Part shown: positions 15,773 through 23,640 of the stretch, piece after piece
Numbering within the stretch: the stretch's first letter is position 1
Layout of the letters: each line of letters opens with the position of its first letter
NCBI RefSeq assembly: GCF_049818055.1
Contig: NZ_CP187479.1
Coordinates: 902,088 to 926,087 of the forward strand
From: Desulforudis sp. Tu-874
GTDB taxonomy: Bacteria; Bacillota; Desulfotomaculia; Desulfotomaculales; JASEER01
Direction of reading: 5' to 3'
DNA: 24,000 nt
Notes under the pieces: model-generated
Told to the model about the DNA's origin: nothing
Database searches by the model: none
The model's input: only the letters and a program-made list of their open reading frames with translations
Position numbers and translations under genes: made by a program

Positions 15773-16489
15773 TCAGGACAAGGCCGCGGCCATTTGGCTG
15801 AGACTTTTGTTCAGTATCCGCGACACCTTGCGCTGGCTGATGCCCAGTTTCCTGGAGGCTTCGGTTTGCGTCAGGTCACGGTAAAAGACCAGGTAGATCA
15901 CCTTACGTTGCAGATCGCCGAGTCGCGCCAGCGCCTGCCGGACGGCGATGACGTCTTCGATGGGCAAGCGGAAGCTTTCGTACCGCAGGTTCTTAATCCG
16001 GGACAGGTCCATCTCGTCCAGCGAAACGATACCGGCACGCAGCGCCTCGAGCACGCCGTCCTCCCGGACATTGACGGCGGCCGCGATCTCGCTGATCGAC
16101 GGAGGTTCTCCGGTCCGCTGCAGCAGTTCGTCCGCCGCGGCATGGATGCGCGCCTGCAGTTCGGCCACCCAGCCCGGCCGGCCGAAGGCGGCCTCGCGCC
16201 GCAGGTGGTGGCGGATCTCTCCGGCGATGCAGTGCGCGGCGTAGGTTGCGAACTTAACGCCCTTCCCTGGATCGAACCGTCGTACGGCCTTCAGCAGGCC
16301 CTCGTAGCCGGCCTGGATCACGTCCTCGCCGGGACGGTCGCCGACGTGCAGCCGCGCGAAGTGCTCGATCAAGCGGCGACCCGCCTGCATCACAGCCACC
16401 AAATCCTGCTCCTTGCCTGTCTCCAGGTATGCTCTCATACTATCTTCCAAGTTTGGAACTCCGCCGCCTGTTGCGCTGTTAGAATACAC
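15773..16489 (-). CDS. sigma-70 family RNA polymerase sigma factor, group 3 (SigB/F/G-FliA clade)
   Basis: Region 2 (DVIQAGYEGLLKAVRRFDPGKGVKFATYAAHCIAGEIRHHLR), a region 3 segment, and a region 4 HTH (LTQTEASRKLGISQRKVSRIL). The GTG start lies 2 nt after the pilC stop, with GGGAGG inside the pilC 3' end. Confidence 0.85.
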   Translation of the reverse strand: MYSNSATGGGVPNLEDSMRAYLETGKEQDLVAVMQAGRRLIEHFARLHVGDRPGEDVIQAGYEGLLKAVRRFDPGKGVKFATYAAHCIAGEIRHHLRREAAFGRPGWVAELQARIHAAADELLQRTGEPPSISEIAAAVNVREDGVLEALRAGIVSLDEMDLSRIKNLRYESFRLPIEDVIAVRQALARLGDLQRKVIYLVFYRDLTQTEASRKLGISQRKVSRILNKSLSQMAAALS

Positions 16490-20771: not shown

Positions 20772-20806
20772 AAACAAAAAAACCGGCCTAAAATCTGAGG
20801 CCGGTT
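20772..20806 (-). terminator. rho-independent terminator ending the peptidase-sortase operon
   Basis: On the minus strand, AACCGGCCU-CAGAUUUU-AGGCCGGUU is followed by a U-tract (UUUUUGUUUG). Confidence 0.7.
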
Positions 20807-20821
20807 GCATAATCATGGCTG

Positions 20822-21475
20822 CTAATTCTCAACCAACTTGGCCCTTACAGCCAGGCGGTTTTCCTTGCCCGATTTGTGACACGTCGTTAACGTCAACGCC
20901 GAATAATCAGTTGGCTGGATAACACTCCAATCATTAGCGGCTATCACCTTGACAAACTCGACCTCGTACACAAAACGTTCGGTACCCTTCTTAATGAGGA
21001 TCCGGTCACCGGCAACCAGCCGGTCTATCTTGCGAAATCACGAACCGTACATGTTCCTATGTGCCGCGACCGCTGTGTTTCCCTCTCCGGGCATCGCCGA
21101 GTGCTCATACCATCCCGGTCCCCTGCTCAGCACGTATGATGTCGTTCCCTTCGCAACGGCTGCTTTCAGCCCTATCTTAGGGATCTCTATTACGAATACC
21201 GCCGGTAAAGGAGGCGGCGGAGGAGCCGGCGCTGGTTTCTTCTCCTCCCCCTTTGGTTCGCCGTCACCAACGACAGGGTTTTCCGTAAGCCCGGTTTCTT
21301 GCCGGACGCTGCCTGCTACACCAGGCACCAGCTCGACTGACTCCATCCGCTCCAGGGCGTGCCGCTGGTAAAGCCAGGCGCGGACATCGGTAAAAAAAGG
21401 GTAAAGCATCAGCAATACCCCCGCTGTCATCAATAAACCGCTGAGAACGATAACCAGCATTCTTTTTCCGGACAT
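20822..21475 (-). pseudogene. sortase (class D/E-like) interrupted by a single in-frame TGA at 21038-21040
   Basis: The N-terminal part (to 21041) has the TM anchor and the His motif (NTAVAAHRNMYGS). The same frame continues after TGA as FRKIDRLVAGDRILIKKGTERFVYEVEFV...SALTLTTCHKSGKENRLAVRAKLVEN. That part carries the TLxTC Cys and the conserved Arg. ATG 21475 has GGAGAG 5 nt upstream. Confidence 0.75.
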
Positions 21476-21552
21476 CTCAACTCTCCAGACTTTCAAGTCC
21501 AAAAGGGGCAATTATTCCTGGCAAGTATTTCTGCACGCAACTCAGTCAAACC

Positions 21553-22092
21553 TTACGCGGGAAGTGGCAGGGTTATGAAATAAGCCGAAACCGTGCCCAG
21601 GAAAATGGCAATGCCGTAAGGAACGGCCAGGCGGTCTTTCGCCTTGACCTCTTCGTTCGGGAGCATCACGTCGTAGCCGATCTTCCCCCTGGTGTAGACA
21701 AACAGTTTTACCCCTACAAGAAAATCGTTCAGGCGTTTGAAGCGCTTGCTGACGATGAGAGCAAGTAAAGCCACTGCTCCGCCCCAGAGAGCGGTCAACA
21801 GCACCGCCGAAAGAATAAATCCGGTCCCCTTGAGCGCGCCGATGGCGCCTAAAAGCTTGACGTCTCCCCCGCCGAGGCCGCCAAGGGCAAACGGAATAAA
21901 AAGAATCAACAGGCCGATCAGCAGCCCCTTGGCACTTAAAAGCAAACCGGGCCAACTCCCGAGGACCCCGTTAATAACCAAACCGGCCGCCATTCCCGAC
22001 AGGGTCAGCCAGTTCGGAATACGGTTTGTGCGCAAATCCCAGGCCAGGCCGATGCCGACCAGCAGGATAACAAGCACGTCGATCATCGTCAA
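21553..22092 (-). CDS. A24-family prepilin peptidase, short CpaA/TadV-like form without an N-methyltransferase domain
   Basis: 179 aa and polytopic. The two catalytic Asp contexts are AWDLRTNRIPN and GGGDVKLLGAIG. There is no cytoplasmic Cys-rich methyltransferase region. GAGGA RBS. Confidence 0.85.
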   Translation of the reverse strand: MTMIDVLVILLVGIGLAWDLRTNRIPNWLTLSGMAAGLVINGVLGSWPGLLLSAKGLLIGLLILFIPFALGGLGGGDVKLLGAIGALKGTGFILSAVLLTALWGGAVALLALIVSKRFKRLNDFLVGVKLFVYTRGKIGYDVMLPNEEVKAKDRLAVPYGIAIFLGTVSAYFITLPLPA

Positions 22093-22139
22093 ATCCTCAG
22101 CTAAAGATCCTTAAACGTATCGGTAACCGGGAGAGTTCG

Positions 22140-22325
22140 TTATTTGAACTCCACAGCTACAATACCCTTCGTGCGGATGGTTACCAGTCGTTTGCACTTG
22201 TTGCACTTGATTTCGATATCGTCGCCGTTGACCACACAAATCAGCTTGTTGCAAAGACACCTTGTTTGCCTGCCGGTCCCCCGGGAGGCCGTTCCGGCAA
22301 GGCTTTGATCGGTCTTATCTTGCAT
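22140..22325 (-). CDS. Com-like zinc-ribbon protein (61 aa)
   Basis: From ATG 22325 (RBS GGAG) the product is MQDKTDQS...TRCLCNKLICVVNGDDIEIKCNKCKRLVTIRT... From memory it resembles phage Mu Com (IRCKNCNKLLFKADSFDHIEIRCPRCKRHI). The first Cys pair has altered spacing. Confidence 0.5.
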   Translation of the reverse strand: MQDKTDQSLAGTASRGTGRQTRCLCNKLICVVNGDDIEIKCNKCKRLVTIRTKGIVAVEFK

Positions 22326-22351
22326 TAATCTCCTGCTCCTCAAAGATAAAA

Positions 22352-22394
22352 CAAAAGGACAAAATATCAAACCGACCTTGACTTAAGGTCGGTT
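22352..22394 (-). terminator. intrinsic terminator forming the expression platform of the leader upstream of the Com-like gene
   Basis: A perfect 10-bp stem, AACCGACCUU-AAGUC-AAGGUCGGUU on the minus strand, followed by UGAUAUUUUGUCCUUUUGUUUU. It lies only about 25 nt before the RBS. Confidence 0.7.
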
Positions 22395-22495
22395 GCCTTG
22401 ACCGTTCCGCGGTAATTCAGGTACCCATTCACCAGCCACGTGCACTGCTCCCCGTTGGGAAAACCAATCCGGCTTCCTGCAAATTCCCGCTTTCA
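22385..22495 (-). promoter_or_regulatory. candidate c-di-GMP-II-like riboswitch aptamer
   Basis: The minus-strand leader contains GUGAAUGGGU (22432-22423) and GCAACCGACC (22396-22387). They occur in the same order as AUGAAUGGGU and GCAACCGACC in the C. acetobutylicum c-di-GMP-II aptamer, which I recall from memory. The second block is also the 5' arm of the terminator. I could not complete a full fold by eye. Confidence 0.45.
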
Positions 22496-22501
22496 CCAAG
22501 A

Positions 22502-22530
22502 ATTTTATCTTTGTTTTAACTGTTTGTCCA
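22502..22530 (-). promoter_or_regulatory. candidate sigma-A promoter for the leader/Com-like operon
   Basis: The minus strand reads TGGACA (22530-22525), a 17-nt spacer, then TAAAAT (22507-22502). Confidence 0.45.
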
Positions 22531-22603
22531 CTACAACTTTCACCAGAAATATCGGCCTTGGGATCTGTATCGAAGTACTTGTCCTCCGGCCTTTTCTTAC
22601 CAC

Positions 22604-23485
22604 CTAATAGACAGCGTAGCTGTCGACCAGGTAGGTTTTAGCAAAGAGCTCGGCGTTGTCATAGTACCGATCCCCCGTTTTGCGCACGAACTTGCCGTCT
22701 TTCACGTATCCTGCGTCCCACGTGGTGTCCATGGGCACCCAGCGGCCGTCGACCTTAATCTCGTTCCAGGCGTGAAACTGGCGTTCCCAGGAATCGCTCC
22801 CGGCCTGCCCGTAAACCACGCGTGCCTCCAGTCCGGCCGCGCGGGCCAACGCCGCGGTCAGGAAGGCGTACCCGCTGCAGACCCCCTGGCGCGCCTCGAG
22901 CGTGCTGCTTGCGGGAGACAGGCTCAAATCCTTGGAAGCAAGACGGCCGGTATCATAGCCGATGTTGGCGGCAACCCAATCGTGGATCGCCCTGGCCTTT
23001 TCCGCGCTCGTTTTGGAACCTGCCGTAACGGCGGCCGCAAGTTTCACGATGTTCTGATCGGCTGAATCAATATAAGCGGAGGGAGCAAGATACCTGTTAT
23101 CCTCCCCGGCCTTGTTGATGACCTGAAACCTGACGGTGCCGTCAAACTTCCGCGGGTTGTCCCCTGCCCAGATCGTGTAAATACCCTGGCCGAAACGAAG
23201 GCTGATCGTCCGTGTGAAGCTTCCCTCTTCGGGATCAACCGGGTAGGTCTCGATCTCGCCGCCGGGACCTCTTACCGCCAGCCATAGCTGCTGTAAATCG
23301 GTCTTACCGGTAACCGTCAGGTCGCCGCTCAACTCCGTCAGGTTCCGGCTCGGGGAAGTGATTTCGATAGCCGCAGATTTAAAGCCGACAGAGTACGCCG
23401 CATCGGCTGCTCCCGGAATGATAACGCAGCAGATGCAAGTCACTAAGACCAAAAGCCAAAAAGCACTCTCGCGGCTGACTCTCAT
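22604..23485 (-). CDS. secreted transglutaminase-like (Cys-His-Asp core) protein
   Basis: Signal peptide MRVSRESAFWLLVLVTCICCVIIPGAADA. Transglutaminase core residues QGVCSGYAFL ... FHAWNEI ... MDTTWD. ATG 23485 is preferred because the 23557 extension would run through the leader terminator. Confidence 0.8.
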   Translation of the reverse strand: MRVSRESAFWLLVLVTCICCVIIPGAADAAYSVGFKSAAIEITSPSRNLTELSGDLTVTGKTDLQQLWLAVRGPGGEIETYPVDPEEGSFTRTISLRFGQGIYTIWAGDNPRKFDGTVRFQVINKAGEDNRYLAPSAYIDSADQNIVKLAAAVTAGSKTSAEKARAIHDWVAANIGYDTGRLASKDLSLSPASSTLEARQGVCSGYAFLTAALARAAGLEARVVYGQAGSDSWERQFHAWNEIKVDGRWVPMDTTWDAGYVKDGKFVRKTGDRYYDNAELFAKTYLVDSYAVY

Positions 23486-23544: not shown

Positions 23545-23640
23545 AGCTTACCGGCAACTGGCTGGCGTAGCAGGTTCCCCTGCCTTAGCCCCTTTAGCTT
23601 TGCGCCGCCACCTTTCGGTGGCTTTGCCCTGAGCGGAGTA
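23545..23640 (-). promoter_or_regulatory. c-di-GMP-I (GEMM-I) riboswitch aptamer
   Basis: The minus strand reads CUCAGGGCAAAGCCACCGAAAGGUGGCGGCGCAAAGCUAAAGGGGCUAAGGCAGGGGAACCUGCUACGCCAGCCAGUUGCC. It has CAGGGCAAA, a 6-bp hairpin capped by GAAA, GCGCAAAGC, and a second hairpin with a CUAAG receptor-like bulge and a GGAA loop. It is collinear with the V. cholerae Vc2 aptamer as I recall it. Confidence 0.7.

Follow-up and report, generated by a model that had tools for sequence, protein, structure and literature searches.

A putative eroded class II c-di-GMP riboswitch with retained promoter and terminator ahead of a Com-like/prepilin peptidase operon in Desulforudis sp. Tu-874

Riboswitches of class II that respond to cyclic di-guanosine monophosphate (c-di-GMP; Rfam family RF01786) are ON switches and are found, for example, ahead of the type IV pilus operon and of adhesin genes in Clostridioides difficile (PMC11477304). 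In this class, the strand of the conserved 3′ block carries a triplex that contacts the ligand (PMC7583470). Here, we analyzed a leader in a 24,000-nucleotide (nt) stretch of DNA from Desulforudis sp. Tu-874 (contig NZ_CP187479.1, positions 902,088 to 926,087; in the following called the window). All genes relevant to the leader lie on the minus strand of the window, in the transcription order class I c-di-GMP aptamer, transglutaminase-like gene, leader, gene of a 61-amino acid (aa) zinc-ribbon protein (Com-like), prepilin peptidase gene (Peptidase_A24) and sortase-domain gene, followed by pilB, a pilT-like gene, pilC, a sigma factor gene and a pilin-like gene. Like the switches of this class, the leader is placed ahead of pilus and surface genes and is arranged in the order promoter, aptamer, terminator, with the block GCAACCGRCC in the 5′ arm of the terminator and with a UGGGYAC loop and a GGA at the right distances. 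Unlike these switches, it lacks the GA of the kink-turn, helix P2 and the GCAC:GUGC pseudoknot, its P1 consists of three pairs, its score is 8 bits compared to 63-88 bits for canonical members, and the class II fold is unfavourable for it. Judged from sequence comparison, the leader is a variant, namely an eroded derivative, of the kind of class II riboswitch with terminator platform that controls the type IV pili of C. difficile. An earlier reading of the same DNA (the original prediction) had proposed a class II-like ON switch in which c-di-GMP would prevent termination.

The alignments indicate that the leader descends from a class II c-di-GMP riboswitch. It is homologous in sequence to the intact class II switch located before pilB in the sister genome L012 (L012 4167-4250; RF01786 score 65.6 bits), and the two are interpreted as paralogues. 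A covariance model of class II, termed R1, was built from ten canonical aptamers (alignment A3) and the Rfam consensus structure and comprises 84 positions. The leader aligns to all 84 of them with one model-position gap and one 1-nt insertion, whereas in chance matches elsewhere in the window the interior of the model is deleted. Seventeen of the 24 positions that are invariant across the ten canonical aptamers are retained. When the whole window was searched with a class II sequence profile, the two top matches were a remnant ahead of pilB, described below, and, in second place, the leader. Over 117 nt, comprising the aptamer-like part, the terminator and the tail, the likeness to the L012 pilB riboswitch amounts to z = 8.4, a value reached by none of 300 shuffles, and it extends over the terminator arm AACCGRCCU and the tail UAUAUUGUCC. 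Both sequence blocks quoted by the original prediction are present on the minus strand. The sequence GTGAATGGGT occurs in a single copy in the window (22432..22423; 0.01 expected), and the conserved 3′ block of class II, GCAACCGRCC, is matched exactly at 22396..22387. The window contains a second copy of this block at 20808..20799 (0.33 expected; two copies were reached by 3 of 100 shuffles), and both copies are on the minus strand with a terminator directly 3′ of each. In line with a class II origin, canonical RF01786 aptamers are located directly 5′ of Com-like homologues in L007 (two in tandem), L021, L023 and L024; in L021, two class II aptamers lie upstream and one lies downstream of the Com-like homologue. 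In the platforms of L007, L023 and L024, the terminators begin inside the 3′ conserved block or directly behind it.

The term class II-like, as used in the original prediction, is hence appropriate for the ancestry and the layout of the leader, but not in the sense of a working aptamer. By the family's own score criterion, the leader is not a member of class II. No RF01786 match was obtained at the gathering score (53.5 bits) in the window or at E ≤ 10 in the 401 nt around the leader (22250-22650), an outcome that the original prediction had listed among those that would refute it. A relaxed Rfam search of the same 401 nt returned noise alone, namely one small nucleolar RNA family and one microRNA family (E = 0.46 and 7.5). 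Since the E-value of the Rfam search is multiplied by 4227 families, the more permissive model R1 had been built. With filters off, it scored the leader (22461..22378) at 8.0 bits, compared to 71-88 bits for the canonical aptamers, and window-wide this match had an E-value of 3.6 and was ranked 14th of 31 matches at background level. The orthologous leaders in L012 and L026 were not listed by R1 even at E ≤ 10. The missing RF01786 match, the score of 8.0 bits and the unlisted orthologous leaders are the reasons why the leader is not regarded as a family member.

The structural features of class II, which were taken from the Rfam consensus, our own alignment and one review (PMC7583470), give a corresponding picture. 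The inner P1 of the leader has three of six pairs (GGG/CCU; 4-6 in canonical sequences), P2 has one of three (2-3 in canonical sequences), and P3 has six of eight, including two G-U pairs and one bulge (7-8 in canonical sequences). In the kink-turn, which in class II consists of UGAA opposite GGA, the leader lacks the invariant A20 and carries a change at G57. The P3 loop reads UGGGUAC compared to UGGGCAC in class II, with the invariant C40 replaced by U and A33 by G. In the pseudoknot, GUAC opposite AGGC leaves two of four pairs, whereas all four are formed in ten of ten canonical sequences, mostly as GCAC:GUGC and, by covariation, as UCAC:GUGA (loop GGUCAC) in L001 and L013. The invariant positions lost from the leader are A20, A33, C40, G50, G57, G64 and U65. 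In the best model alignment, the block GUGAAUGGGU falls on the P3 loop (consensus AauUGGGCAC), whereas the original prediction had assigned it to the kink-turn and a stem. When the nested helices of class II were threaded onto the sequences, the energy was +11.9 kcal/mol for the leader and +14.6 kcal/mol for the L012 leader, compared to -19.5 to +0.3 kcal/mol for the canonical aptamers. Shuffled sequences reached minimum free energies as good as that of the leader (z = -0.14 and +1.2), and predicted folding alone gives no evidence of a structured aptamer. Because defining features of class II were tested for and found to be absent, the leader is not to be filed in this family.

The promoter and the terminator are intact. 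The proposed TGGACA-17-TAAAAT promoter was recovered by a scan at 22530..22502 and is identical in 28 of 29 bases in the orthologue L012; in the leader region, three promoter-like sites were found compared to 1.1 expected. As promoter of the Com-like gene, the sequence TTGATA-16-TATCTT (22370..22343) was also considered and was rejected, since its start would fall at or inside the ribosome-binding site. With an inferred transcription start near 22495 the leader is about 100 nt long, close to the approximately 110 nt given originally. Its 5′ part had no Rfam match in the relaxed search of 22250-22650 and carries a 1-nt deletion among population variants. The perfect 10-base-pair (bp) terminator predicted just 5′ of the Com-like gene was confirmed at 22394..22370. 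Its stem contains five G-C pairs and is followed by UGAUAUUUUG; the U-rich tail UUUGAUAUUUUG occupies 22372..22361, its first two U's being the last two bases of the stem. The hairpin has a predicted energy of -14.4 kcal/mol, a stability comparable to the -15 to -19.6 kcal/mol of the hairpins behind canonical class II aptamers. The 5′ arm AACCGACCUU begins at class II model position 68, as it does in the L012 pilB switch, and takes in eight of the ten bases of the conserved 3′ block, which, as had been proposed, doubles as terminator arm. In L012 the stem is unchanged and substitutions are confined to the loop. Folding revealed nothing above a 4+2-bp hairpin on the 5′ arm that could compete for pairing before the 3′ arm of the terminator is transcribed.

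With moderate confidence, we interpret the leader as an eroded class II riboswitch; its terminator would now serve as a leaky attenuator that works independently of a ligand. In canonical relatives, the strand AACCGRCC is either a partner in P1, pseudoknot and triplex or the 5′ arm of the terminator, and c-di-GMP locks the block into the former, which keeps the terminator from forming and lets transcription continue (ON). In the leader, the original layout of promoter, aptamer and terminator with its 5′ arm inside the GCAACCGRCC block persists, and the block has no sequestering partners left. Because the kink-turn and P2 are lost, the pseudoknot is reduced to two of four pairs and P1 to three pairs, the terminator would form by default, and ligand binding has presumably been lost. 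Termination would then be constitutive and, because the U-tract UUUGAUAUUUUG is interrupted, probably partial. The expected outcome would be a low, ligand-independent basal expression of the transcript encoding the Com-like protein, the prepilin peptidase and the sortase remnant; in addition, the terminator may end read-through from the upstream unit that is under the class I riboswitch. Like constitutive terminators or attenuators in 5′ leaders, the element has a GC-rich 10-bp hairpin and a U-rich tail between promoter and ribosome-binding site and no predicted competitor. It differs from these in its apparent history as the expression platform of a riboswitch and in the interruption of its tail.

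Several observations weigh against this interpretation. The retained invariants include the GG/CC and AACCG core, P3 keeps six of its eight pairs, and the pseudoknot can also be drawn in another register of 3 bp that pairs CCU with AGG. The P1 of the intact L012 pilB switch has four pairs only, and a short P1 is thus not decisive. Moreover, only a single diverged orthologue, L012, is available, which leaves a covariation test without power. The search for relatives yielded six relatives of the Com-like protein in a large protein database, and scans of genomes and metagenomes yielded three and eight loci, respectively, of which L012 is the sole orthologue; six more contigs from the same species as the window encode an identical Com-like protein behind near-identical leaders. 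Homologues of the peptidase (about 55% identity) are found in Flp/Tad pilus loci, where neither a Com-like gene nor a comparable leader is present. Finally, the high identity to L012 described in the following may reflect selection on the whole leader including its aptamer-like part, or an unusual constraint at the nucleotide level.

The whole leader is 95% identical in L012 and is part of a block of about 600 nt (22610..22011) with 87-98% identity, which begins at the end of the transglutaminase gene, spans leader and Com-like gene and stops 80 nt inside the peptidase gene. Window and L012 share 85% identity in the Com-like product. At third codon positions, the Com-like gene is 88.5% identical, compared to 62-66% in the flanking transglutaminase and peptidase genes (about 34-38% of the positions differ). 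The high identity also covers synonymous positions in the Com-like gene, which points to a recombination tract rather than to selection at the RNA level, and a recent tract of this kind fits the data at least as well as such selection. Within this block, the 84 aptamer-like nt contain eight differences to L012, whereas the promoter, the 5′ leader and the stretch from terminator to ATG together contain three in 113 positions (Fisher p = 0.057). The rate in the aptamer-like part is similar to that of the Com-like gene at its third codon positions (7 of 61). The invariant G55 is also lost in the L012 leader, and a substitution and a 1-nt deletion affect the aptamer-like part among population variants of the window's own species. 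Although the counts are small, this pattern looks like a drifting sensor with promoter, terminator and ribosome-binding site retained. The intact class I aptamer upstream of the gene for the secreted transglutaminase-like protein differs from this: it is 94% identical in L012 with immediate flanks of 53-57% identity, a contrast that, unlike the situation at the Com-like leader, is a clear signature of selection on the aptamer.

An alternative explanation would be a still-functional, strongly divergent riboswitch derived from class II, in which a remodelled fold, lacking the kink-turn and with its pseudoknot shifted, binds c-di-GMP or a related dinucleotide, sequesters AACCGACC and thereby prevents termination, as in the ON switch of the original prediction. 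The retained core and the 17 of 24 invariants, the overlap of terminator and conserved block as in working switches, the identity of the leader in L012 compared to that at neutral sites of the flanking genes, and the pilus/surface gene context typical of class II (PMC11477304) would all agree with it. It is nonetheless unlikely, as there is no RF01786 match, the score with a dedicated model is 8 bits and that of the orthologues lower still, invariants of pseudoknot and kink-turn are lost without compensation, and the threaded fold is unfavourable. Furthermore, G55 is lost in L012 as well, the aptamer-like part contains an indel among population variants, and the identity extends to the synonymous sites of the Com-like gene, as would be expected from a recombination tract. 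The missing family match, the 8.0 bits, the broken helices and the threading energy also leave the ligand-gated ON switch of the original prediction unsupported. Doubtful, too, is the more far-reaching version in which the leader would be a working riboswitch of a new class II-derived subclass that has lost the kink-turn, has re-registered its pseudoknot and senses c-di-GMP or another cyclic dinucleotide; if true, such a switch would gate a Com-like post-transcriptional regulator together with prepilin processing.

It is also conceivable that the attenuator is read by a protein. In this case, an RNA-binding factor, possibly the Com-like protein itself, would bind the conserved 5′ leader or the terminator region and bring about read-through, and the likeness to class II would reflect ancestry only. 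This would be in accordance with the 5′ leader (39 of 40 bases identical) and the terminator-to-ATG stretch (43 of 44) being the most conserved parts compared to L012, with a Com-like first gene (matches to PHROG gpCom and "translational regulator" families, weak match to Pfam Zn_ribbon_Com), and with the recurrence of Com-like genes as first genes of operons for surface structures. However, no binding motif was identified, the GUAAAGCCC..GAGGCAAUA motif of other Com-like genes is absent from the window, the Com assignment is below the Pfam cut-off, and no antiterminator structure of any strength is predicted, which makes a protein-read attenuator rather improbable. A mere chance likeness, in which the terminator of the transglutaminase gene upstream would stand behind an ordinary promoter and a 10-mer would match the consensus by accident, would be compatible with window-wide scores at chance level (covariance model E = 3.6, rank 14; nhmmer E = 1.8) and with the two GCAACCGRCC copies reached in 3 of 100 shuffles, but is very hard to reconcile with the full-length alignment containing one single-position gap and one single-base insertion, the 17 retained invariants, the z of 8.4 to the L012 pilB riboswitch with a likeness continuing through terminator and tail, and the canonical class II aptamers occupying the same position before four homologous genes.

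Table 1. Coordinates of the leader elements and neighbouring features in the window, and of related loci in other genomes and contigs.
Feature	Position	Strand	Basis or remark
Sigma-70-like promoter TGGACA-17-TAAAAT	22502..22530	-	Scan, 10/12 consensus matches
5′ leader, upstream of the aptamer-like stretch	22462..22501	-	Compared with L012 (see text)
Eroded class II c-di-GMP aptamer (putative), 84 nt	22378..22461	-	Retains UGGGUAC (loop), GGA, GCAACCGACC
Intrinsic terminator AACCGACCTT-AAGTC-AAGGTCGGTT	22370..22394	-	10-pair stem, 5-nt loop, tail TGATATTTTG
Ribosome-binding region GAGGAGCAGGAG	22330..22341	-	Read from sequence, ahead of ATG at 22325
Com-like zinc-ribbon gene	22140..22325	-	61 aa + stop (22325..22143 without stop); first gene 3′ of leader
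Short prepilin peptidase gene, Peptidase_A24, CpaA/TadV-like	21553..22092	-	E = 3e-16
Sortase-like gene, interrupted	20822..21511	-	In-frame TGA 21040..21038, 5′ of catalytic TLTTC motif
Truncated second class II riboswitch, upstream of pilB	20774..20808	-	Only GCAACCGGCC, terminator and U-run left
Class I c-di-GMP riboswitch aptamer, intact	23550..23638	-	RF01051 76.9 bits, E = 9e-14
Com-like recurrence loci	L007 2633-3189; L021 226-796; L023 263-595; L024 504-843; L001 3001-4911; L013; L015		
Motif sites near Com-like genes	L007 2775-2800; L008 1727-1752; L014 349-374; L016 1700-1725; L017 208-233		
Motif sites near Com-like genes, continued	L019 76-101; L021 142-167; L023 194-219; L024 437-462		

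Next to the leader, further elements of the locus show signs of decay (Table 1). Upstream of pilB, the window retains TGCAACCGGCC and a terminator, whereas this place in L012 is occupied by a complete class II aptamer with a TTGACA/TATAAT promoter. Compared to L012 3976-4260, about 260 nt are gone, including the promoter and the first approximately 66 nt of the aptamer, and the remnant scores about 8 bits with our own class II model. Its hairpin lies 14 nt 3′ of the stop codon of the sortase gene and probably acts as a plain terminator. The leader resembles this remnant in its apparent class II origin from the same lineage and in the retained GCAACCGRCC block and AACCGRCCU...AGGYCGGUU terminator. 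The two differ in their mode of decay, since the pilB remnant lost the 5′ two-thirds and the promoter in one deletion, whereas the leader is full length and carries point changes. Both of the two class II elements of the window are degenerate. The proposal that both riboswitch classes are used in neighbouring units applies to L012, in which the transglutaminase gene lies behind a class I aptamer and pilB behind an intact class II aptamer, but not to the window itself.

The sortase-like gene of the window is probably a recent pseudogene. At the position of its stop codon, the window reads GS* and L012 reads GGW with a tryptophan; the L012 frame is uninterrupted (200 aa), and in the window the frame stays open for another 71 codons 3′ of the TGA. 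In L027, an independent metagenome contig, the same gene is called at a truncated length of 145 aa. Separately, the Com-like gene of L012 (L012 2501-2682) carries a 1-nt deletion that turns AAACAAGG into AAACAGG and puts the ATG out of frame with the zinc ribbon, and this gene offers no other start codon. The frameshift could either mark a pseudogene or be an assembly error in this metagenome-assembled genome. A further observation concerns the pilus cluster, which contains a sigma-70 family gene (regions 2, 3 and 4) at 15776..16489 on the minus strand, with pilC on one side and a large pilin-like gene with N_methyl and SdrD/SpaA-like domains on the other.

The product of the Com-like gene is a four-cysteine zinc ribbon resembling Com of phage Mu and has the same sequence as a hypothetical protein from Desulforudis sp. 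1088 (100% identity). Phage Mu Com is reported to bind mRNA and thereby activate translation. The match of the window's protein to Pfam Zn_ribbon_Com (PF10122) is weak (E = 0.026; 14.4 bits, with a cut-off of 22.9), and such a match is seen for four of six members of the Com-like family. All six members match PHROG 13819 "gpCom" (best E = 2e-4), and PHROG families annotated as "translational regulator" are matched as well. Small proteins are also encoded under c-di-GMP riboswitches in C. difficile, where they are helical, membrane-associated and located behind class I switches (bioRxiv 10.64898/2026.06.10.731418). Common to both systems is a very small protein as first product of a transcript controlled by a c-di-GMP riboswitch, whereas the Com-like protein is a four-cysteine zinc ribbon with relatives behind class II switches. 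An assignment of the Com-like protein to the C. difficile small-protein family was rejected, since the latter are helical membrane proteins.

Beyond the window, Com-like zinc-ribbon genes (58-62 aa, motif RCxCNKLIC...EIKCNKCKR) recur as first genes behind one or two canonical class II aptamers. The genes located 3′ of them are exopolysaccharide genes (Wzz and tyrosine kinase), genes of giant surface proteins (Cu_amine_oxidN1, cadherin-like) or pilus genes. This recurrence suggests a relay from c-di-GMP via a riboswitch to a small regulator, and we found no description of such a relay. Near the Com-like genes of nine loci, either up- or downstream, a motif (G)UAAAGCCC-NNN-GAGGCAAUA is present, which is often followed by a U-run. 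It had no Rfam match, and GUAAAGCCC..GAGGCAAUA, which was looked for in the window, is absent there; the motif may serve as a binding site or represent a small structured RNA. The Com-like genes nearest to that of the window (65% identity) have another conserved leader (L001 2850-2935, L013 255-350 and L015 1335-1410) of the sequence GAGAGCGCACCGRGGUCARGARUUGGUCC...GACCRAUUCAGGAAMAAGGKUCCUGCAGCCUCUSUUUUUUG with a terminator-like stem at its end. For this leader, no Rfam match at the gathering score was obtained, and it could represent another regulatory RNA.

Riboswitches that have lost the aptamer and kept the expression platform are invisible to homology searches and are therefore rarely documented. 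The recurrence of Com-like genes behind class II aptamers may prove more useful than the leader itself. In the case described here, one gene cluster in two sister genomes offers a natural series with an intact (L012 pilB), a deletion-truncated (window pilB) and a point-eroded (the leader) element, which adjoins an intact class I switch. This series could show how a slowly evolving subsurface lineage dismantles its c-di-GMP control of pili, and it could also show the later fate of a terminator that is left without its sensor.

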